DNA of 63,039 nucleotides, the filler included, from Collodictyon triciliatum (taxonomy: Eukaryota): the NCBI GenBank assembly GCA_043381765.1. It is 11 parts of 11 records of this genome, joined end to end, with 100 filler letters (N's around TTAATTAATTAA, not from the genome) between each part and the next. Parts side by side here need not be neighbours in the genome. Positions count along the whole stretch, not along the records: positions 54,599 to 60,647 come from JBHJMP010004745.1; 10 more parts are not named here. One strand, given 5' to 3'. A program made the translations under genes and the position numbers. This document shows positions 4,406 through 60,747 of the stretch, in pieces (within the stretch, counting starts at the first letter, position 1; the number at the start of each line of letters is the position of its first letter). The notes beneath the pieces were generated by a model, which saw only the letters and a program-made list of their open reading frames with translations, was not told the origin of the DNA and searched no databases.

Positions 4406-4672
4406 GCGGGACCATAAACTGTATCGCTGCAAGCCTTCCCTCCGACTCAGTTTCACTGCCCCTGTTATTCCCATGACGAATATACAAGAATCAAAGCAAA
4501 ACCAATGTCACAACCAACAAAAAGGAAAAAAAAAAAAGACGAAAACCCGATGCCTGATATGCCGCACACATCTCCCCACTGGAAGGCACTCGGGCACAGA
4601 CAACAGAAAACCCGATCAACACGAACACGACACATAAACCCGTACCCGCAACAACTCTCAAACCAGACAGCT

Positions 4673-5896
4673 ATGCTTGCCACTGCAGTGAGCCGGCTTG
4701 CCCTCTATGCGCGGCCTTTGTCACGGCCCCAGCCCGTCCGCCACCTGCGCTCCCACCTGCAAAGCAACCTCGAGGCACTCGGCAGCGATCAGTCCTTCCG
4801 CCGCTCCCTGACATTCACGCTCGGAGTCGGGCTTTCTGCCGTGGGCGGGCTCTTTGTCTACGGCCAGTACGAAGTGCGCAGGCAGGACTGCGTCTGGGAT
4901 GCCTTCGAGCGTGCAAAGGCCTCGGTTGCGGTGCAGCAGCGCATCGGGCCGGCCGAGTCGGTCCAGATGGGCACCATCCTCACCGGAAACCTGCGGACAG
5001 ACCCGCTTCATCCTTCCCAACGGCGAACAGCCGAAATCTCGTTTGGCCTTCGCGGCCCGCTCGGGGTGGCCACAGTCCACTTCACAGCCCACACGGAGCC
5101 CAAGACAGCAGAGCAGCTGGAGCCATCGACCACGATGAAGCCTGTTGATGTGCCAAAGGTCTGGCTTCTGGATAATCTCACCGTCACCTGCCCGCAAACG
5201 AGTGAGCTCATCATCATGCTGGAGAACGGGAAGCCGCCCCAGTTTATCTTGCCGGCCGATGAGTTCAGCGCACAGGCAGATGTCTCGCCTGGAGCGGCGC
5301 AGGCATTGAATGTGGAAGAGACAAAGGATATACAGCCACACCCGCCTTTGGCAAACACGGCTGATCTGAACCCAAACGCAGGGCCGAATCAGGCCACAAA
5401 CGACTTCCCTTTGCTCTATATCCTTCTTGCTGCGGCGATAGGCACACCTCTTATGGCGGGTTCCATTTACTTGGCCTTGCGATGGAAGCGAAACCAGGAC
5501 TTCAAGGCGTTGACAAGCAGGTTTCTGCAGCATCCAGAGCTGGTCCGTGCTGTTGGCTCGCCAATCAAGATGTCTGGTGCATTTAGGGGTCTCTGGCAGC
5601 CAGCCGACTCGAAAAGCCCGCAAGGCGTGGCCAGTGTTGTCTTCAATGTTGTTGGGCCAAATGCATCAGGAGGGTCGAATCACACAGCCACGCGAGGCCT
5701 TGTTGAGGTTCACGTCCAGGCTATCCAGAACGAGCCAAAGGCAGGGTGGAGGGTTCAACAGGCCAGTGCCATCATCCCGCCTCATGGGAGGAGAATCGAC
5801 CTGCTTGCCGAACGCACAACACCTGCATCTTTCACACACAGAAAACACCATCACCACCCTCGAAGTGGCAGTGGCCAGGACGAGAAAGGAGAATAA
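4673..5896 (+). CDS. probable mitochondrial inner-membrane protein with two TM + Coa1/Tim21-like domains
   Basis: Likely start ATG at 4673 gives an Arg/Leu/Ser-rich presequence (MLATAVSRLALYARPLSR). Two units follow, each TM helix + 'V...G.P/A' + 'A.(I/V).F.(L/V).GP' + 'V...A' + 'W'. Confidence 0.6.
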   Translation: MLATAVSRLALYARPLSRPQPVRHLRSHLQSNLEALGSDQSFRRSLTFTLGVGLSAVGGLFVYGQYEVRRQDCVWDAFERAKASVAVQQRIGPAESVQMGTILTGNLRTDPLHPSQRRTAEISFGLRGPLGVATVHFTAHTEPKTAEQLEPSTTMKPVDVPKVWLLDNLTVTCPQTSELIIMLENGKPPQFILPADEFSAQADVSPGAAQALNVEETKDIQPHPPLANTADLNPNAGPNQATNDFPLLYILLAAAIGTPLMAGSIYLALRWKRNQDFKALTSRFLQHPELVRAVGSPIKMSGAFRGLWQPADSKSPQGVASVVFNVVGPNASGGSNHTATRGLVEVHVQAIQNEPKAGWRVQQASAIIPPHGRRIDLLAERTTPASFTHRKHHHHPRSGSGQDEKGE

Positions 5897-6066: not shown

Positions 6067-6166
6067 NNNNNNNNNNNNNNNNNNNNNNNNNNNNNNNNNN
6101 NNNNNNNNNNTTAATTAATTAANNNNNNNNNNNNNNNNNNNNNNNNNNNNNNNNNNNNNNNNNNNN
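6067..6166. other. artificial contig linker (44N-TTAATTAATTAA-44N); also at 12228, 18049, 24210, 30366, 35943, 42191, 48351, 54499, 60648
   Basis: Identical 100-nt block with stops in all six frames, recurring about every 6 kb. Confidence 0.98.
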
Positions 6167-6722: not shown

Positions 6723-8108
6723 ATGGTGATGTCTGCAGATAAGAGACGAAAGGGTAAAGGCGCGTACCAAAGTCATAAACCCGTTCCGGAGTTGATTCGC
6801 TTCGAGTATCCTCCGCCGTGTTGCTGTGTTATGGTCACCAATATCAGTCTCCAAACAACCAGCGCAGAATTACATCAAGCCTTTCAGCCTGTAGGATTTG
6901 TACTCGAAGCTAGACTTTTCCCGCCACCCTCCTCTTCTGTGGCGTCAGGTTTCTTTGAAATAAAATATCCATTGAACATTCTTTTTTTCGCTTACTCTAT
7001 CGCTACTTTTTTTTTTCTCTAGAATTTATATTATTATTTATCAGTGGGTTATGGAATTGTTCGTTTTTGCACACCCACATCGGCCAAGTTGGCTGCACAT
7101 CAAATGGATGGTGCTATCATTAATGACTATCCGTGCAAGGTAGATAAAACATAATGTTATCGGTTACAGCCAACCCAGAAGCCTAATATCTATTTGATTA
7201 TTTATTAATGGTATGACATTGCCGATAAATATGATGCACATCCAAACTAGCAAACACATCAAAAGTTTATACCAAACCCTTTATTTCATGGATTCTTAGG
7301 TTGACGTAATGAAGCCTGTGTCAAGAAAGTTCAAGAAACAGCTGTCAGTTGAGCAATCCACATGCTTACTGAATCACTTTCTTGGGTTCAATGGATGGTC
7401 AACATCTATCAAAGAGTTACAACTATCGAACCAAACGACACTAGCTTCTTCTTTAGAATATTTATGTGAGTTCTCTTGTCTCATTGAATTCAAATTTAGC
7501 CACATGAATAATACCCTTGTATCTGACGATGGCTGGCAAGGTTGGAAGGAGAGTTTCGTCAGAGATACCAAACTTAACGCTCGAAGTAATGCCAGAGAAC
7601 TTGCTCAACCATTTGAGTTACAAAAAAATGCAGAAAAATCAGAGCGATTGGGCACATTGCTTCTCCATGAGGGAACTTTACCACAAAACCTTTTGGTAGA
7701 TGATATCGCCCACCCTCGACAAGATTCAATGATCGCTGGACATTCAGAAAATGGAACTATAGTACAAGAGTATAAGGTTGTAGGTTCATTAAAAACACAG
7801 AGTCCATTGACATCCGATGAGAATTCGCAGACTGAGGAAAGCGATTCAGAAGATGATACTACTGAATCGCAAGATTCGAGTGAGGAGCGCGAAATGACTC
7901 AAATAGAGAATAGTAACTTTTCTAGAGACCAAATGACCCTGGATAGTAATGTGGTACGAGGATTTGGCCGGGGATGGGGCCGGGATACCAATAAGCGCGC
8001 TGCACTAGACAATGGGAGAAAGGTAGGTGCATGTTCGACTGTATTTATTTACTTATAAATTACTCTACCCGTTTTGATGGGCACACCTTCTCCGCTCTCA
8101 CATTAGCA

Positions 8109-30145: not shown

Positions 30146-30615
30146 GTTTGTCGACGTGCGTTTAAGTTCTTTCGTCGCCCTTGGCCTAATATATTTCTTT
30201 CTAAATGTTGGTATATAAAACTAATAATGATTAATTAAAAAAAAAAAAGAAGAAAAAAAGAAAAAAAAAAGAAGAAAAGAAGAAGAAAAGAAGAAGAAAA
30301 GAAGAAGAAAAGAAGAAGAAAAGAAGAAGAAAAGAAGAAGAAAAGAAGAAGAAAAGAAGAAGAAANNNNNNNNNNNNNNNNNNNNNNNNNNNNNNNNNNN
30401 NNNNNNNNNTTAATTAATTAANNNNNNNNNNNNNNNNNNNNNNNNNNNNNNNNNNNNNNNNNNNNTGTTTGTTGTTTGTTGTTTGTTGTTTGTTGTTTGT
30501 TGTTTGTTGTTTGTTGTTTGTTGTTTGTTGTTTGTTGTTTGTTGTTTGTTGTTTGTTGTTTGTTGTTTGCTGCTGTCCTTGCTGATGTCGTCATTAATTA
30601 CATGTTTATGAATAG

Positions 30616-35523: not shown

Positions 35524-36042
35524 ACATAGTCTTGTCGCGATGAAAAAAAAAAGTTATCATCATCACCATCATTGCTGTGCTGATGATACGCATATGATTC
35601 CATTAACATGAAACGCGCTCCAGCAAATGAAACAAAAGGCGGAAGAACAGAGACTAAGCACGAGACAAGACGAAAGAGAAAGCCTTAATTATAAAGTCGA
35701 TATAAAGAGCCTGTGTCTAGTCACACAGCAATCCTTCCCACCTTCTGCCTGCCTTGTGCCTTATGAATCCCGACTTTCTCGGGTTGCCATCGAAGCAGTC
35801 TTTTCGTTTCGGTGCGTGATTCGCATCGCGCTCAGGAAAAGAGAGTAGGTGTGGGTGTGTCTGGTTGCTGGGCGACTCCGTTTGTAACCGCCTTTTTTTT
35901 TTTTTTTTTTTTAAGGCAAAGGGTTTCGGCATGTTTTTCTTTNNNNNNNNNNNNNNNNNNNNNNNNNNNNNNNNNNNNNNNNNNNNTTAATTAATTAANN
36001 NNNNNNNNNNNNNNNNNNNNNNNNNNNNNNNNNNNNNNNNNN

Positions 36043-42040: not shown

Positions 42041-42414
42041 TACCCCCGCAGGAAGACGGCCGAGCGCTTTGCCCCACAACAAAGGCAAAGCCACACCACA
42101 GCTCGCGCCGATTCCAGAGTCAGCGCACACACCAACCCAGGCAAAACCCCCGCCAACCCCAAAGACTCCACAAGAGGCTCCCCTTCCACTNNNNNNNNNN
42201 NNNNNNNNNNNNNNNNNNNNNNNNNNNNNNNNNNTTAATTAATTAANNNNNNNNNNNNNNNNNNNNNNNNNNNNNNNNNNNNNNNNNNNNTTGTTTGTTT
42301 GTTTGTTTGTTTGTTTGTTTGTTTGTTTGTTTGTTTGTTTGTTTGTTTGTTTGTTTGTTTGTTTGTTTGTTTGTTTGTTTGTTTGTTAAACTAATTGGAT
42401 CGACGCCTTTACAG

Positions 42415-44767: not shown

Positions 44768-45564
44768 ACCCAGGAATTTACGCCGATGAATTGACGACGG
44801 GAGTTGCGTCCATTTGCAAAAGGAATAAAAACGAAATGTGCGTTGAGATGNNNNNNNNNNNNNNNNNNNNNNNNNNNNNNNNNNNNNNNNNNNNNNNNNN
44901 NNNNNNNNNNNNNNNNNNNNNNNNNNNNNNNNNNNNNNNNNNNNNNNNNNNNNNNNNNNNNNNNNNNNNNNNNNNNNNNNNNNNNNNNNNNNNNNNNNNN
45001 NNNNNNNNNNNNNNNNNNNNNNNNNNNNNNNNNNNNNNNNNNNNNNNNNNNNNNNNNNNNNNNNNNNNNNNNNNNNNNNNNNNNNNNNNNNNNNNNNNNN
45101 NNNNNNNNNNNNNNNNNNNNNNNNNNNNNNNNNNNNNNNNNNNNNNNNNNNNNNNNNNNNNNNNNNNNNNNNNNNNNNNNNNNNNNNNNNNNNNNNNNNN
45201 NNNNNNNNNNNNNNNNNNNNNNNNNNNNNNNNNNNNNNNNNNNNNNNNNNNNNNNNNNNNNNNNNNNNNNNNNNNNNNNNNNNNNNNNNNNNNNNNNNNN
45301 NNNNNNNNNNNNNNNNNNNNNNNNNNNNNNNNNNNNNNNNNNNNNNNNNNNNNNNNNNNNNNNNNNNNNNNNNNNNNNNNNNNNNNNNNNNNNNNNNNNN
45401 NNNNNNNNNNNNNNNNNNNNNNNNNNNNNNNNNNNNNNNNNNNNNNNNNNNNNNNNNNNNNNNNNNNNNNAAGAGCCTTAAGAAACTCATGTGCTCTTCT
45501 TTTTCTTTCTTTTTTTTTTTTATCCCCTCTTTCTTACCTGAAAAAAAAAATCCTCATCACATAG

Positions 45565-48197: not shown

Positions 48198-48450
48198 GTT
48201 TGGAATTAGAGCTGCTCGTTCGACGGACTTACTTTCTTATTCTGTTATTAGTATTGGTATTATTGGTATTATTGGTATTATTGGTATTATTGGTATTATT
48301 GGTATTATTGGTATTATTGGTATTATTGGTATTATTGGTATTATTGGTATNNNNNNNNNNNNNNNNNNNNNNNNNNNNNNNNNNNNNNNNNNNNTTAATT
48401 AATTAANNNNNNNNNNNNNNNNNNNNNNNNNNNNNNNNNNNNNNNNNNNN

Positions 48451-49071: not shown

Positions 49072-54020
<4,949 letters not shown>

Positions 54021-54692
54021 TTTGTGGAAGCTTTACCCACGCCTATTTAGCTGTCTTTTCTGCTTTTCCCTCTTTTTTTTTTTTAACCATTTTTCATGAT
54101 TATTCTTCTTTTTCTTTTTCTTTCTTTCTTTCTTTCTTTCTTCCTATCTATCAAAGAAACAAACATTTGTGACGAATTAATTATTGGATTCAATAGTTGC
54201 CTTTGGCGTAGTGGCGCACATAAATTATCAAAATAAAGAGTTTAGTTTCCTCGCGTCTGTTTTTATATCGTTGAACTGAAGAACCACAGATCAAGCAATA
54301 ACCAGACAAACTCAGACTCTTGGGCGTAACTTGGCAGCCTTGCAGCCTCTTTTCTTTTTCTTTTTCTTTTTCTTTTCTTTTTATGTTTCTCTTGTTTTTT
54401 TTCTTTGTTTTTGTTTTTGTTTTTGTTTTTGTTTTTGTTTTTGTTTTTGTTTTTGTTTTTGTTTTTGTTTTTGTTTTTGTTTTTGTTTTTGTTTTTGTNN
54501 NNNNNNNNNNNNNNNNNNNNNNNNNNNNNNNNNNNNNNNNNNTTAATTAATTAANNNNNNNNNNNNNNNNNNNNNNNNNNNNNNNNNNNNNNNNNNNNTT
54601 TCTTTTGTTTTCTTTTGTTTTCTTTTGTTTTCTTTTGTTTTCTTTTGTTTTGTTTTATGATTATAGATAAAAAAAAAATATTAGAAGCTCAC

Positions 54693-57600
54693 CCAATTAG
54701 GACCCAGAATGGCAAAAATATGTGTGTTGGTACCCATTTTGACGTCTGTAGGGGTTTCAACCAACCGCGCTTTTGTTTTTAAAAGGTGGCAGGCGGTACA
54801 TACATCCTTGACAACTCCTTCAATATCGGATACATGCTTTTCTGTTAGTCCGCATCCGATACATGAGTTTCTGTACATTCTCACTTTGCTTTTTACACTT
54901 TCAATAATTCCACTATCCGGGGATGTCCCAGTGAGAAACAATATCGACAAGGTTAAGTGAACAACATGATATGTGAATTCGTCCACGGCCTTTTTTCTTT
55001 CTATCATGAGTTTCAAATTAGCATCTGAAAGCGATTCGAGAATCGAGAGAATCCGAGGGTGAGAGACAATCTCTCTGTGTACATGTTTTGGATGATCAAG
55101 CATGGATATATTATGCGCGGACAATATATGACCGTGCAAAATAATTGAGCGGAAAACATCCATTCCACACCTATGAATTGGTTTTAGTTTTCTAAACCAT
55201 TCCACGATTTCTATTGGGGTTTGGACTTTTAAATGCGGTGCTATTTTTCTCCTATAGTTGCTCATATTGCTTCGAAAATCAATCATAGAATTCAACATTT
55301 GGCTAGGACAACTGATGGGAATAGGCCTCTGGTGATAAAACTCCGATAAGTGAATTTTTTTTGATTTATCCGGACACAACATCTTGAGAGGACAAAGTGT
55401 TCGGATGTCCTGTAGTCCTTCGTGAGAATACAACATGCAGTGCTCCTCATCGCCCCATTCAGTACAAGTGTCATTCTTGGGACATACAGGACGAAGGATG
55501 TGAACGAATCTCTGCAAATGAATCGGGTCGTCTAATTTTTTGCAGAATCGACCACGAGGACATATATGTGAGAAATTTTGAATATGTTGTGGGTCCTTGT
55601 TGTTGCAGTGATAGGGGGTTTCTGGGCAGACTGGCAAAAACAGGTGCTCGATTTCGTCGTAGTGAGGCTTGAAATTATACTCTGTACAAAAGGTACCTTT
55701 CGGACATTGAGTCTTTAAATGACGTTTCTCGGATGCATGTTTTGGATCGCTTCTGAGAGGACACTTGATTCCATTCGGGCACAAAGGTAAGTGGATGTAT
55801 GACTCTAGATGGTTTAAATTTACATTTTCACATGAACCACCTAATTGACAGAGCGGAGGATGGCTGAAGTATTGTGCATGTTGGCTGTCTTTCCAAACTT
55901 CTTGACACAGCCCTTTCTCAGGACATACGTGGTCATGAGACCATAGTTCGCGATGAACAGGGTCATCAAAACGAAGACATGGTATGTCCTTGCAAACATA
56001 AGGGTGGCCATATCCATGCATATGATTTGGAGACTTGTTTGTGCACCTTGGTCCGTAGTGGCAAGGTTTCACAAAGAGTTTGTCTATTTTACCCGCTGAT
56101 GTGCTCATGGAGCCAGTTCCGATTTCCTTGTCAAATTGGGAAACTAGCTCAATGTATTGAGGGTCTGTGTTAGAGAATGTCTCATTGCTTAAGCAGAAAA
56201 TGACTTTTTGAAAGAATCCTCCGTACATGCGAAGGGATTCATGAATAATTTTAAACACTAGAGAGGGTGGATTGTTGTATTTTCCACACCCAAATGCATC
56301 CAGAATCAAGAAATCATGGCCTTTATGGATTGCAATCGCCATTATGGTTTTGATTTTGTGAAAAGTGGCAATGACATATTTGTTTTTTTCATCTTGCGAC
56401 TTAACGGATGGAGATGGGATAGGAGCTACTGCAATCAGATCAATTTCGAAACTATCTTTGAGTAATTTATAACCAGATTCACGTCCATCTCGAAACACGG
56501 TGATATTCTTGGAATAAATGCATCCGTACTCAGGTATTGGATATAGCGAAACGAAAGATTCAGTAGATTGTTTAGAATACAGATGCGGTGCCAGGGCCAT
56601 GCTATAATTCGTCCGTTTAAAAAGCTCGCATTCTAGTGTATTCTCGCCCACATTAAAGTCATCTTCAGGGCTGGTATATGATGCCACATTAAGCAACAAA
56701 GGGCGAACACCTTTGCTTTTCAAGTTTTGGGCAGTAGCTAGCATATCTGTGTTTTGATTAAACTCAATTATGACACTTTTTTGGCTTGACCTTGGTTCAG
56801 TGGTAATTGCCGGTGCATTTGCATAAAGGACAGACGGTGGAGGATTTTTTATCGTGATTGAAGCGCCACACACCGATGTGTATGCCTTATTTTGACATAT
56901 TGATAAGGTATTGGCCATGACCATGATATTCAAAGCTTTGAGATGTTTCACACACCTCTCTTTTTCTCCAGGAGTATTTCGTGACTCCAACTCAGTCTTA
57001 TATTGTTTCCAATGTTTCGCCCAAGCTGCCGCATTCCACAACATGCTATCAAAATCTGTTTTCTGGATGAGATCTTTTACAGAGATGATAAGATCAAGCT
57101 GCTTCGTACTAAAGCTTTCCTCGCTAATGACTTTAACACATATCGCTTGTTTCATTTCGGAGACTGAAACAAACTTTTCACACAAGTAAATCCCTTCGCT
57201 TCTTAGTATTTGATCACATAGGCCTTTATCGTATATTAGCAAGCTAACTTCCTCCTTGTTCTGGTTGATATCCCATAAATCTGAGTCCAGTAACTTGGCC
57301 TTTGATAAATTCTCTCTCAAAAGCTTTACGTCTTTAGAGAGTGATATTGGAAGATTAACAAAATATAACTTTTTATAGACAGGATAGTTGATGATTACAC
57401 TCTTATCCAGGATCTTCATCCTTGATAATACTTGAAGTGATATGATGTCTTTCATGTGAGAGAAAAAAATCCTGTACGTATGAGTCTCTTCATCTACATC
57501 GATGAAAGAAATATTGCGATATGATGACCTGAGATTTGTTTCAATAACTTGACTGCTCAATGATAGTGTAGGTTGGTCAATTAGGATATAACCAGGATCC

Positions 57601-60418
57601 GTGGAATAGTTGAATCTGATACCACTCAACTCTCTCTCTTGTTTAATGAGTTCTGGTGTATTTAATGCATCCTCGTTGGATTTGAAGTATAATCCGAGAA
57701 CCTTTTTGGATATTTTTTTCATAAAGATAGCCTTTGATTTGACCTCGATGACTCTGAACAATTCCTCAGCGATGGGCTCCTTGGAGTTTATCATCACCAA
57801 TATTCTTATAGGATATCCTTCGTACATGTGCAATGTTTTATGATCGATAGTGATGTAAGAGGGTGCTGTCGCACTATCTATATTGCTAATAATTAAGGAA
57901 GACATTTTAGAGTTGGGAACTAACTGAGACCCATGGAGTGCTTCACTGATTGAAAGCATAGCTTGTTTCGATTCTAGTATATCTTGTGTTAAATGAGGAA
58001 TTGTGTAAGTTCCTGGATGGAAGTAGTCGATGACATGCACATCCCATTTGTAAGATCCTATTTCGATTAACCTGTTCTCCAGGAATGGATTTTGAGTTGG
58101 TGAATTAGACGCTCGAAAAATCATTCGTGGGATTGATGAGTAATCTTCCATTTTGAAGTGAGTATCTTTGGATGTCATTTCCCTAATTCTGCTCTCGAGC
58201 GAAAACTTTAGAATATGTGGTACATCTTCTATGCTGATATAGACATACGGCATTTCTTTAGCAGATGGATATTTTCTTGCTCCATAACCACCTGCCAATG
58301 GTAGTTCTTGAGTACCGTTTCTTTTATTAAAGGAAGGTTCTTTAGGAATGTCATGGGCAACAGGTGGTGATATATTAGGATAAACGCAATTATTGTTTGG
58401 TGCTGGATATACTAAGGATAATTCTGGCTGTCCAGGACCTTGATGGAGTCCTGATAACGGTTGTTGAGCAAGCCCTTGCACTAATGAAGGATTTGGTATC
58501 TGGTGAGGTGGGGAGTAAACCTGCTGCTGACCATATCCCGGTGATTGAAAAGCTGATTGTGTGTTTTGATATTCAAAACCAGGGTTATGAAATGTCACGT
58601 ATTCGTATCGCTGATGTGCACTTTGAGGGTGCTGGATATGAATTTGCTGCTGTAAAACTGCTGCTGCATACTGCTGGTTATGAATCGGGTATTGAGGTTC
58701 ACCTTTTCCATTATACTGTTGGGTATACCCCTGTTGTTGGGTGTATCCTTGTTGTTGGGTGTATCCTTGTTGTTGGGTGTATCCTTGTTGTTGGGTGTAT
58801 CCTTGTTGTTGGGTGTATCCTTGTTGTTGGGTGTATCCTTGCTGTTGGGTGTATCCTTGCTGTTGGGTGTATCCTTGCTGTTGGGTGTATCCTTGCTGTT
58901 GGGTGTATCCTTGCTGTTGGGTGTATCCTTGCTGCTGGGTGTATCCATGTTGTTGGGCGTATCCTTGCTCCTGAAAATTTTGGACTACATTTTGTTGGGT
59001 AAGTACTTTTTGTTGCTCATAATTATGATTTTGATAAGATTGGGGCATTTGTTGCTGCTGATACCCAAAATATTGGGTTGGGTTAGCTCCCGTATTTGAC
59101 TGTACATTTGCCGTATACTGGGAGGGTATGTTTCCGTGATGATGCTCATACCCTGGGTTGTGTAGTGCGGCTGTCATGCACTTAGAGTGCTCGCTTTCAG
59201 GGTTATGTAAGGGCTTCACCCCATGAAATTCTGAATACTCGTGATGAGTCGTGTTGGGATGTTGTGGTTGTGAATAATCGTCATACCGAAAGGGTGGTGT
59301 TGAAATGTGATGATGGCTGCCTTGATGGAGATAGTGGGACTGCTCAAGTGTGATGGGTAAATTTGTTTGCACCATGTCTGTGGGATTGAGCGTGAAAGAA
59401 GAGTGAATGGAACTGCCTAAAGATGAAGAGCTATTCCCAAAATCTTGAAGTACATGCTCGTATGTAGGATGTGCTACACCGCCACCTTGACTTTCCAGAG
59501 ATTTTTTCAAGTAATTTAAAATTAGGCTATCCTTAAGCTGAATTGAGTCGAAAAAATAAACCTGTGGTGAATGAAGACCATTTTACAAAGAAAAAAATAT
59601 GAATGTAGTTTCACGGGGGGTAATAGATATTAGATATGTTATACATATACAGTCTACACTACAGGAGTAAACTCAAATCGTAATCTATAACGCCAAGGTC
59701 ATCTTTTAATTATTTTTTAATCATGCTCTATATGATTGATATTATATCATTTTTATGATTAAGATTTACCAGTTGGTTTGATACTGGACATCCCTGTTCA
59801 TAACGAGCCCATAAGTAATCTTGTGCCAGTCTGGAGCATTCTAGAGAAGCCAATTTGTGTGTTTTGTATAAGTTGACTCTGAATATTCCCGGAGTTATAC
59901 TTTGCAGTATATCAGCTAAAGAAGGATCTGCAAAAGATGTGAAGCCTGATAGGATTACGATGAAATCTCCTTCATTGGGAACTGTGTGTAGGACTCGTAA
60001 CTATTTAATTGATATACAGATTAATTAGTCATAATGGTACAATTATTTTAAACACATAGAACCAAACGCAGATTATGCACGCAAAAGAAAGGATATATGT
60101 TGAGAAAAAACACAATATTGAATTGGATGGAAAGTAGGTTTGTGAGTATATGATATAAATTGAAGCATACTGACAAAGTGTTGGGCTTACCAATAACTAT
60201 GTCGGTAATTTATAACTCTAAATTTTTTTTGTAAAAAAAAGTTATAAGGATTCATAACGAACCGGGTATTCAATCGGTATATCGAATTCAGTTTGGATGA
60301 GCATAATCCCAGTGCGCTTGAATGCCCCAGGTTGAAAGACGACGGCAGGAGGCAGAGATAATCTCGGCAGCGGATCGCTTCCTTCGAAGACAATAAATGG
60401 AAGTGGAAAGTAACTCAT
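54693..60418 (-). CDS. large ADP-ribose-related multidomain protein (RRM-like, Q/G/Y repeat, TIGR02452/DUF2263-like macrodomain, 10 PBZ-like fingers, DarT-like C-terminal domain); exons 60263-60418, (60191-60196), 59770-60000, 54693-59537; 3' partial
   Basis: 1609-aa ORF plus upstream phase-0 exons. Macro motifs LLNVAS…P…ELFKRTN, LYPIP…IYS…VFRD, IAVAP, LILDAFGCGKYNNP and FQKVIFC. CCHH repeats. Ends at a TGG|GTGAGC donor. Confidence 0.85.
58722..58968 (-). repeat. coding 18-bp tandem repeat encoding (QQGYTQ)n, ~13 copies
   Basis: Direct reading, in frame within the large exon. Confidence 0.95.
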
Positions 60419-60747
60419 CCCACTTGAAGTCCGAATGAATTAAACTAAACTATCACGCTTCGCTTCTAACCACCCGGAGACGTGTCTTGAAACTTTTCTG
60501 TACTGCACAAAATAAGCAACCATGTGATAAGGGGCATGCTCTCCTCTGTTTTTGTTTTATTGTTTTATTGTTTTATTGTTTTATTGTTTTATTGTTTTAT
60601 TGTTTTATTGTTTTATTGTTTTATTGTTTTATTGTTTTATTGTTTTANNNNNNNNNNNNNNNNNNNNNNNNNNNNNNNNNNNNNNNNNNNNTTAATTAAT
60701 TAANNNNNNNNNNNNNNNNNNNNNNNNNNNNNNNNNNNNNNNNNNNN

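Follow-up and report, generated by a model that had tools for sequence, protein, structure and literature searches.

We analysed a 63,039-nucleotide stretch of DNA from Collodictyon triciliatum (hereafter the window), and found that positions 60418 to 54693 on its minus strand hold the opening 1,752 codons of a genuine eukaryotic gene with introns. The 3' part of this gene is missing because the contig ends, and it would lie beyond the contig end. The family to which the encoded protein belongs is conserved and consists of very large ADP-ribosylation proteins; no Pfam ADP-ribosyltransferase (ART) model covers their transferase-like domain. From the N to the C terminus, the protein is predicted to contain a small N-terminal domain, a Q/G/Y region, an RRM-fold array, a degenerate PARG, ten PBZ fingers and, at its end, the opening part of an ART-fold domain. 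Taking gene, domain order and family together, we give this reading a probability of roughly 0.7.

No name was found for the protein family. The PARG-PBZ part of its architecture is already known in Adineta vaga; the new element is the transferase-fold part, which is without annotation in Pfam, PADLOC or the source names. In our view it represents a new family of the ART fold, marked by a helical insert and conserved among scattered eukaryotes; by sequence it is not a DarT member. In the following, residue numbers of the window protein are those of P0001, and P0002 onward denote its relatives.

ART fold of the C-terminal domain

The linker and the first part of the ART-fold domain span 54693..55328 (minus strand), according to the alignment to P0023, a complete and compact relative of 366 amino acids. 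This window part comprises a predicted beta1 with a histidine (codon 55173-55175, within PIHRC), alpha1, beta2, a helical insert and beta3 (HIFAILGP). In the relatives, the domain runs about 150 residues further through G-x-YYG, HPD, a conserved Trp and DSH-x-x-x-E-x-HLP, and reaches about 320 residues in total.

The sequence-only reading of this DNA had named failure of the C-terminal domain to model as an ART fold as the outcome that would count against it. This modelling was run on the complete relative P0023 with AlphaFold2 (AF2) and a 35-sequence alignment (A1), and it gave an ART fold. The P0023 model reached a predicted local distance difference test score (pLDDT) of 92.3 and a predicted template modelling score (pTM) of 0.89. 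In a Foldseek search against the PDB, the top match was SopF with NAD (E 6.4e-4, probability 1.00), and seven of the first ten rows are ARTs (SopF twice, DarT1, Thermus DarT, M. tuberculosis DarTG, OspC3 and Thermosipho DarTG). We also searched 48,161 PDB representative chains with VIA. The top 9 all belong to the ART superfamily, with Z values of 9.3-10.9: SopF (10.9), Thermus DarT (10.8), M. tuberculosis DarT (10.7), CopC (10.3), Thermosipho DarTG (10.2), yeast Tpt1 (10.1), OspC3 (10.1 and 9.3) and E. coli DarT1 (9.7). The rows below these match the helical insert only. A second look with VIA placed ARTs in all top 14 rows (Z 9.3-11.2), followed by a value of 7.6 for proteins that match the helical insert only. 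By modelling, the domain of this family is an ART fold.

Within the P0023 model, beta1 (42-46), alpha1 and beta2 are followed by a helical insert of about 110 residues (63-176), which separates beta2 from beta3, and then by the remaining strands. Alignment A1 contains His44 and Ser62 in 35/35 sequences, and Arg45 and Cys46 in 34/35 each. Among the sequences that reach the respective column, Tyr194 and Gly195 are present in 34/34, Glu299 in 33/33 and His301 in 32/33. The histidine is predicted in beta1, the tyrosine before beta4 and the glutamate at strand 299-302. His and Tyr are 150 residues apart (about 40 without the insert), and Tyr and Glu are separated by 105. PMC9967889 gives H13, Y71 and E160 for Thermus DarT, which amounts to spacings of 58 (H13-Y71) and 89 (Y71-E160). 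The window copy keeps 12 of the 13 strongly conserved positions (at least 30/35) that it reaches, including His; the exception is S184, which is Ala in the window, as in 6/35 A1 rows.

Since the His-Tyr-Glu set is invariant across lineages at 26-61% identity, an active enzyme is favoured over a scaffold, and the balance leans towards the ART domain of this family being an active NAD+-using enzyme. Such an enzyme would bind NAD+ via His and Tyr, and would transfer ADP-ribose with Glu. The domain could instead be a pseudoenzyme that senses NAD+ or ADP-ribose or serves as a scaffold, with the whole protein acting as a reader or adaptor in ADP-ribose signalling. Pseudoenzymes with an ART-like domain are known in eukaryotes, one case being the LRRC9 family (PMC7955679); that ART-like family is flanked by leucine-rich repeats (LRRs) and is separate from the one found here. 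The catalytic signature has been lost in the macrodomain of the window protein, Diphylleia P0004/P0077 and P0005, so catalysis can be given up within this family. However, the conservation of the three residues across Diphylleia, rotifers and other sequences is active-site-like, and we consider a pseudoenzyme rather unlikely.

DarT (DUF4433, PF14487) is the ADP-ribosyltransferase toxin of DarTG systems, and it acts on thymidine or guanosine of single-stranded DNA (ssDNA). Our family resembles it in an ART fold with a long ADP-ribosylating turn-turn (ARTT) region, and in the match of its model to the Thermus, M. tuberculosis, Thermosipho and E. coli DarT structures (Z 9.7-10.8 over 163-185 residues). 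In both, a His in beta1 (predicted here) is followed by a helix of the type ...SIxxHGxxxS, and the conserved Tyr and Glu of our family, at comparable spacing, may correspond to those of DarT. Both are also linked to a macrodomain, which is DarG in trans for DarT and of PARG type in cis here. However, the partner macrodomain here is not of DarG type, DarT has no counterpart of the helical insert of about 110 residues, and a single eukaryotic multi-exon, multidomain chain stands against a two-gene toxin-antitoxin pair with a DarG macrodomain or NADAR. Thermus DarT carries an H-x-T NAD+-binding motif (H-I-T), a catalytic Arg (R51) and a Glu (E160), according to PMC9967889, whereas the family here has H-R-C (Arg 34/35, Cys 34/35). 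No sequence match to DarT was obtained with Pfam or PADLOC, and phmmer and hmmsearch retrieved no DarT from the PDB. The DarT-like transferase proposed from the sequence thus holds for the fold (DarT Z 10.8, tied with SopF at 10.9), but it does not hold at the sequence level in Pfam, PADLOC and PDB searches.

SopF from Salmonella, OspC3 from Shigella and CopC from Chromobacterium are protein ADP-ribosyltransferase or ADP-riboxanase effectors. They gave the best or tied-best structure matches (SopF Z 10.9-11.2, CopC 10.3, OspC3 10.1), aligned from the N-terminal helix. This raises the alternative that the ART-fold domain is active on proteins, as SopF is on glutamine or as OspC3/CopC are in arginine ADP-riboxanation. 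SopF ranked first with Foldseek (E 6.4e-4) and also in the two VIA runs (about 200 residues), CopC and OspC3 reached Z 10.1-10.3, and all three align from model residue 1, which gives more coverage than DarT. However, these Z values are tied with those of DarT within 1 unit, the identity is 8-14% with no sequence-level relation, and no sequence match to PF06128 or another family was found. Furthermore, these are secreted bacterial effectors that need host cofactors (ARF1 and calmodulin for SopF and OspC, according to the titles of the matched PDB entries), whereas the protein here is eukaryotic, places the domain beside PARG and PBZ, and offers no hint of a cofactor. The RRM-fold array and the DNA-repair-type fingers point to nucleic-acid surroundings as well. 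We regard activity on proteins as unlikely.

Another candidate is a Tpt1/KptA-like, NAD+-dependent enzyme working on RNA or DNA ends, which would remove 2'-phosphates or cap 5'-phosphates with ADP-ribose under the guidance of the RRMs. Yeast tRNA 2'-phosphotransferase gave Z 10.1 with the top identity among the best rows (19% over 108 residues), mouse Tpt1 gave Z 6.7, and an RRM-fold array would suit an RNA substrate. However, only 108 residues were aligned, compared to 163-206 in the other top-9 matches. No sequence match to Tpt1 was found, and the H-H-h motif of Tpt1/KptA, as given in PMC9967889, differs from the invariant His, Tyr and Glu of this family. We consider this candidate highly improbable. 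Taken together, Pfam searches on the tail and on 11 relatives of the A4 set, together with PADLOC, revealed no sequence membership in the DarT, OspC, PARP or Tpt1 families.

The P0023 model was also compared with a viral structure library, and no match at E<=0.001 was found. Weak resemblances (E 0.005-0.02) were seen to uncharacterised proteins of Bodo saltans virus, Pithovirus and Yasminevirus, and also to iridovirus 422L, betabaculovirus ORF32 and a phage DUF3626 protein; none of these is used as support. An arthropod-virus "ORF28" family is called DarT-like in a review (PMC9503650). A feature search of the ESM Atlas returned bacterial and viral clusters, with PF06128 (Shigella_OspC) in 33% of members (score 0.92) and DUF3626 in 39% of the members of a cluster. 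We treat these as leads only and not as support.

Relatives and gene structure

An exhaustive HMMER search of 1.84 billion representatives with the 219-residue tail of the window protein returned 67 relatives at E<=0.001, including 13 with E<=1e-10. P0002 from Diphylleia scored best (E 1.1e-45, 42% identity to the tail). Residues 424-1608 of P0001 are collinear with residues 388-1568 of P0002, with 31% identity over 1,189 columns. Because this collinearity is broken by only 12 gaps, the whole architecture is common to the window protein and P0002. A word-index search with residues 410-1609 among proteins of near lengths gave 4,517 candidates, none of them significant, which marks a limit of sensitivity, given the later exhaustive matches.

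We looked up 30 of the 67 clusters, of which 18 bear an organism name and 12 are from metagenome sources. The named clusters are 12 from bdelloid rotifers (Adineta, Rotaria, Didymodactylos), four from Diphylleia rotans, one from a fungus (Jimgerdemannia flammicorona) and one from a red-alga transcriptome (Madagascaria). There is no prokaryote among these 18. The sequence-only reading had pictured the protein as built from bacterial conflict-system parts; this is borne out by the type of the PARG domain, but the named clusters contained no prokaryotic relative of the ART domain. A pattern scan of genome contigs (A4) yielded 62 pattern matches with none confirmed as relatives, which is a weak negative. 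The source names seen for the relatives were "Uncharacterized protein" and "Microbial-type PARG catalytic domain-containing protein". In the open-access main-text literature, we found no description of the ART-fold domain, or of an RRM array in a PARG-PBZ context.

Microbial PARG and PBZ accompany the ART-fold domain in most relatives. As annotated by sequence, the companion domains in the relatives consistently belong to ADP-ribose biology.

Some relatives have further arrangements. The ART-fold domain occurs with two WWE domains in P0036, after a classical Macro domain in P0049, after an R-S-E NAD:arginine ecto-ART (PF01129) in P0027 from Rotaria, and after LRR-Roc-COR in P0035. Past the ART-fold domain, P0002 (~1720-1990), P0008 (~380-600), P0032 and P0052 share another conserved, putatively beta-rich stretch. 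It covers about 250 residues and is not matched by any Pfam model. Then follow a low-complexity stretch and a terminal cluster of 3-5 PBZ fingers, which is scored well by Pfam. This terminal cluster of the complete relatives looks more canonical than the array in the window.

The coding span present in the window (60418..54693, minus strand) starts with an ATG at 60418-60416 and is a partial gene of three exons (52 + 77 + 1,623 = 1,752 codons). Exon 1 (60263..60418, minus strand) encodes 52 codons, MSYFPLPFIVFEGSDP...IPIEYP, followed by a donor GT at 60262; it has no Pfam match. Exon 2 (59770..60000, minus strand) has 77 codons in frame with exon 1, between an acceptor AG at 60002-60001 and a donor GTAAAT at 59769. 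Exon 3 (54693..59561, minus strand) begins after an acceptor AG at 59563-59562 and stays open for 1,623 codons up to a candidate splice donor. The DNA around it has a single uninterrupted 4.9-kb frame (59582..54681, minus strand, about 36-41% GC) with a stop at 54681-54683. These predicted exon borders were deduced from GT/AG sites, the frame, and the collinearity of exons 1 and 2 with Diphylleia P0069.

The exon 1 peptide is collinear with the N terminus of this Diphylleia rotans isoform (MLEIPFIVFKGYDP...IPSEYP). The exon 1/2 join, ...IPIEYP / LRVLHTVPNEGDFIVIL..., matches ...IPSEYPFRPLLLPVESEFIVLL... in P0069, and exon 2 resembles ...PVESEFIVLLK... of the same protein. Because the peptide of exons 1 and 2 is collinear with P0069, the gene start and the first intron are supported. 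The small N-terminal domain encoded by these exons, which the sequence-only reading had called RRM-like, is conserved in P0069 and has no significant Pfam match. The interval 54693-60418 that had been singled out from the sequence proved to be the exact coding span present, and the strings quoted from it, PIHRCGMDVFRSIILHGHILS ... TDVKMGTNTHIFAILGP, occur in the translation.

At its 3' end, the window protein reads ...GTNTHIFAILGPNW, and the candidate splice donor GTGAGC (54687..54692, minus strand) stands directly after ...ILGPNW. The relatives go on at exactly that residue with G-x-YYG-x-I.... Reading through GTGAGC, the frame stops after VSF at 54681-54683. The contig end (54499..54656) consists of a 10-nt microsatellite at 54599-54656 and then an N44-TTAATTAATTAA-N44 linker at 54499-54598. 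The contig thus stops 94 bases past the coding span, inside the microsatellite, just as the gene had been described as cut off at the contig end. A tblastn search for the rest of the gene elsewhere in the window, using P0023 and the C-terminal portions of P0002, P0003 and P0004, returned only finger cross-matches and the already known tail.

The in-frame stop three codons past ...ILGPNW allows another explanation, namely a decaying or naturally truncated copy, with a frame that ends at VSF-stop and a product without a working ART and PARG. The degenerate PARG signature and the absence of a gene remainder elsewhere in the window (tblastn) would be consistent with this. However, 1,623 codons are open with each Cys and His of the fingers intact, and 12 of the 13 assessable ART positions are kept. 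A consensus GTGAGC donor is found exactly where the relatives continue, and the contig ends 94 bases on in a microsatellite, which is a typical assembly break point. A decaying or truncated copy is therefore improbable, and we retain the reading of a partial gene whose 3' part lies beyond the contig end.

Macrodomain, zinc fingers and RRM-fold array

The microbial-type PARG macrodomain is located at 56178..56921 (minus strand; P0001 residues 864-1111; TIGR02452 / PF10021). TIGR02452 matched with E 2.5e-17 and 63.3 bits against a cut-off of 50, in agreement with the TIGR02452/DUF2263-type macrodomain that the sequence-only reading had placed at ~56190-56930. The PF10021 match had E 7.4e-9 and 36.6 bits against a cut-off of 23.5. 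A Pfam scan of the whole protein missed the PARG domain, and a piecewise scan detected it. The only PDB sequence matches of the macrodomain are bacterial PARGs (Deinococcus, Thermomonospora; 5zdb, 3sig), with E values of 2e-8 to 2e-7.

The PARG catalytic signature, reportedly set out by Slade and co-workers in 2011, is GGG-x6-8-QEE. At 56628..56672 (minus strand), the window protein carries a degenerate form, SPEDDFNVGENTLEC, in place of the GGG-x-QEE seen in bacterial PARGs and in most of its relatives. In the alignments to D. radiodurans PARG and to P0002, EDD replaces GGG and LEC replaces QEE. Because the diphosphate loop and the catalytic Glu pair are both degenerate, the window macrodomain is probably a non-catalytic PARG-like domain, and the EDD..LEC reading fits the earlier wording of a "(pseudo)eraser". 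Among the 20 relatives of the A2 alignment, 15 keep both GGG and EE, two retain the Glu pair but have an altered glycine loop, and three show a degenerate signature (Diphylleia P0004, its isoform P0077, and P0005). Since these Diphylleia proteins are also without GGG..EE, the alignment indicates that the family has lost the eraser site on more than one occasion. In the Diphylleia rotans paralogues P0004/P0077 and P0005, the macrodomain is too degenerate for Pfam. Diphylleia P0002 and P0003 keep most of the PARG signature.

A bacterial-type PARG with PBZ repeats has been described in Adineta vaga (Perina et al. 2014, PMC4245714, citing Slade et al. 2011). The window protein has the same core, a microbial-type PARG and then PBZ repeats, and the A. 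vaga protein P0016 (UJR32654.1), which carries PARG and PBZ, is among the 67 relatives of the tail. However, the available part of PMC4245714 mentions PARG and PBZ fingers, and not an ART-fold domain or an RRM-fold array. In addition, P0016 keeps GGG..QEE, whereas the signature in the window is degenerate.

Ten PBZ-type CCHH zinc fingers were located at 55329..56072 (minus strand) by a pattern scan and alignment. The finger pattern is C-x4-6-C-x6-8-H-x5-6-H, and the consensus of the ten units is xxxCPxGxxCxxxxDPxHxxxxxH. A profile made from these ten fingers was searched against the whole PDB at E<=10, and it matched just two distinct sequences, both of them APLF tandem PBZ (E 1.2e-6), with both APLF fingers aligned and Cys/His in register. 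The family profile also matches APLF PBZ in the PDB (E 2.4e-4). The likeness to APLF is thus in the C-x5-C-x6-H-x5-H fingers. The Pfam PBZ model PF10283 does not match the finger region of the window at E<=10; many relatives carry Pfam PBZ matches. As judged by descent and spacing, these fingers are of PBZ type, and the ten CCHH (PBZ-type) fingers counted beforehand were recovered in full.

The tandem array of RRM-fold or ferredoxin-like units lies at 57144..58247 (minus strand; P0001 residues 422-789), as located by AF2 and Foldseek/VIA. The best-matched RRM-fold units are at 57378-57599 and 57144-57374, and a further ferredoxin-like unit is at 57597-57815. For the ~450 residues past the low-complexity region, the only sequence relatives are Diphylleia P0002 and its isoforms, and P0003 and its isoform P0073. 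An AF2 model of the array built on 7 sequences (pLDDT 68.7, pTM 0.55) contains repeated beta-alpha-beta-beta-alpha-beta units. Foldseek returned 14 matches at E<=0.001 for this model. The top 10 rows are all multi-RRM structures (E 5.5e-6 to 1.5e-4), including Prp24 in the U6 snRNP and raver1 RRM1-3. VIA aligned model residues 229-302 with hnRNP A1 RRM2 (Z 9.0, 2.1 A over 71 residues) and with TDP-43 RRM1 (Z 8.5). Residues 229-381 match the tandem RRMs of UP1, U2AF65 and PABP, and residues 157-229 match ferredoxin-like domains (Z 8.0). A weak RRM_occluded match in the relative P0003 (E 0.026) stayed below the cut-off. A tandem RRM fold with at least three RRM/ferredoxin-like units in the middle region is therefore supported at the fold level by modelling, in line with the ~3 RRM-like domains expected after the low-complexity region.

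The Q/G/Y/H-rich low-complexity region itself was found in the translation at 58311..59453 (minus strand; residues ~20-400 of the long exon), where a Q/G/Y low-complexity region had been noted. Tandem Repeats Finder identified 13.9 copies of an 18-nt unit (QQGYTQ) at 58717-58967, with period 18 and 95% matches.

PARP14 / PARP10-type animal proteins have RRM, macro and ART domains in one chain. The window protein likewise combines an RRM fold, a macrodomain and an ART fold, which is an analogy and not common membership. The ART here is not a PARP catalytic domain (no PF00644 match), and the macrodomain is of PARG type, not of MacroD type. The family profile gave a weak match to a PARP14 macrodomain (E 0.18), and PARP1 and PARP2 stand far down the Foldseek list of P0023 (E>1).

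Possible targets and mechanism

Several observations weigh against our reading of the protein. As far as sequence comparison goes, no method ties the C-terminal domain to any ART family. The window tail has no Pfam family at E<=10, and the same applies to 11 relatives of the A4 set. Its sequence has 0 matches in the PDB at E<=10, PADLOC gave no match to DarT or other ART models, and the family profile found PARG and APLF PBZ in the PDB, but no ART. Structural Z values of about 10-11 are clear but not overwhelming. Because the top values are tied within about 1 unit, the modelled fold does not rank DarT, SopF, CopC/OspC3 or Tpt1 as the nearest subfamily. The triad was placed by conservation, predicted strands and spacing, and not by superposition on an NAD+ complex, and the window copy reaches only the His, with Tyr and Glu past the contig end. 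For the middle region of the window, no Pfam RRM model (PF00076 and related) matches at E<=10, and the confidence of the RRM model is only moderate (pLDDT 68.7, 7 sequences). The fingers add a further point. In APLF, the ADP-ribose contacts are the Tyr in C-x-Y and in C-Y-R plus the following Arg, according to PMC6264785. Here, an aromatic residue at C1+2 is present in 1/10 fingers, Tyr after C2 in 0/10 and Arg at C2+2 in 1/10. Because the ADP-ribose-contacting Tyr and Arg residues of APLF are mostly absent, binding of poly(ADP-ribose) (PAR) by the ten-finger array appears doubtful.

If the ART domain is active, the RRM and finger arrays may select its target, either a nucleic acid or a protein bound to one. 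A nucleic acid or the proteins on it are favoured because of the RRM-fold array, the repair-type fingers and the DarT/Tpt1-like fold matches; protein targets in general keep some weight because the SopF and OspC matches are equally good. That the nucleic acid itself is the target is a tentative suggestion, with odds somewhat below even. In most relatives, the PARG domain would erase poly- or mono-ADP-ribose, and would reverse or trim the modification in this way. In the window copy, this PARG activity has probably been lost.

A more specific proposal, which we consider unlikely, is that the protein is a eukaryotic DarT-like writer of nucleic-acid ADP-ribosylation, marking bases or ends of ssDNA or RNA presented by the RRM array. 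The adjoining PARG macrodomain and PBZ fingers would then erase or read the mark in the same polypeptide. Bdelloid rotifers, Diphylleia and the window organism would then have a self-contained way of marking nucleic acid, either to maintain the genome or to counter viruses and mobile DNA. Where the eraser is dead, as in the window copy, the protein would only write the mark or would be a regulatory variant.

So far, ADP-ribosylation of DNA or RNA bases is known chiefly from bacterial toxins, DarT among them, and from a few toxins of animals. The family described here puts a DarT/SopF/OspC-like ART fold with an invariant His-Tyr-Glu set beside PARG and PBZ in eukaryotic proteins. Bdelloid rotifers survive desiccation and radiation, and 12 of the 30 relative clusters looked up are from these animals. 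If the domain is active, the family would offer a testable candidate for a eukaryotic writer, eraser and reader in one chain, and it would represent a new branch of the ART superfamily. A "DarT-like ART" in human cells appears in PMC8501950 as speculation only.

The window strings together separate contigs, each about 6 kb long, and N-runs recur in it about every 6.1 kb. The N44-TTAATTAATTAA-N44 linkers are at 6067-6166, 12228-12327, 18049-18148, 24210-24309, 30366-30465, 35943-36042, 42191-42290, 48351-48450, 54499-54598 and 60648-60747. The contig carrying the gene (54599..60647) has identical linkers at both ends. A 620-base N run at 44851-45470 lies inside one contig and is unlike these regular linkers.

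Open reading frames (ORFs) on other contigs are located at 14537-15955 (minus strand), 51357-53190 (plus strand), 4418-5896 (plus strand) and 7300-8058 (plus strand). Their matches are NIDO (E 2.5e-33), a PITPNM-like protein (IP_trans, PITM1-3 beta-sandwich), Coa1 and a weak Rad52/RDM1-like match. We rejected these ORFs as genomic neighbours of the gene, since the window consists of separate contigs, and for the same reason they say little about it. The GC content per 2-kb bin ranges from 0.26 to 0.56 across the window, and the pieces may come from more than one organism. The NIDO and PITM1-3 matches suggest animal-like content in the assembly.

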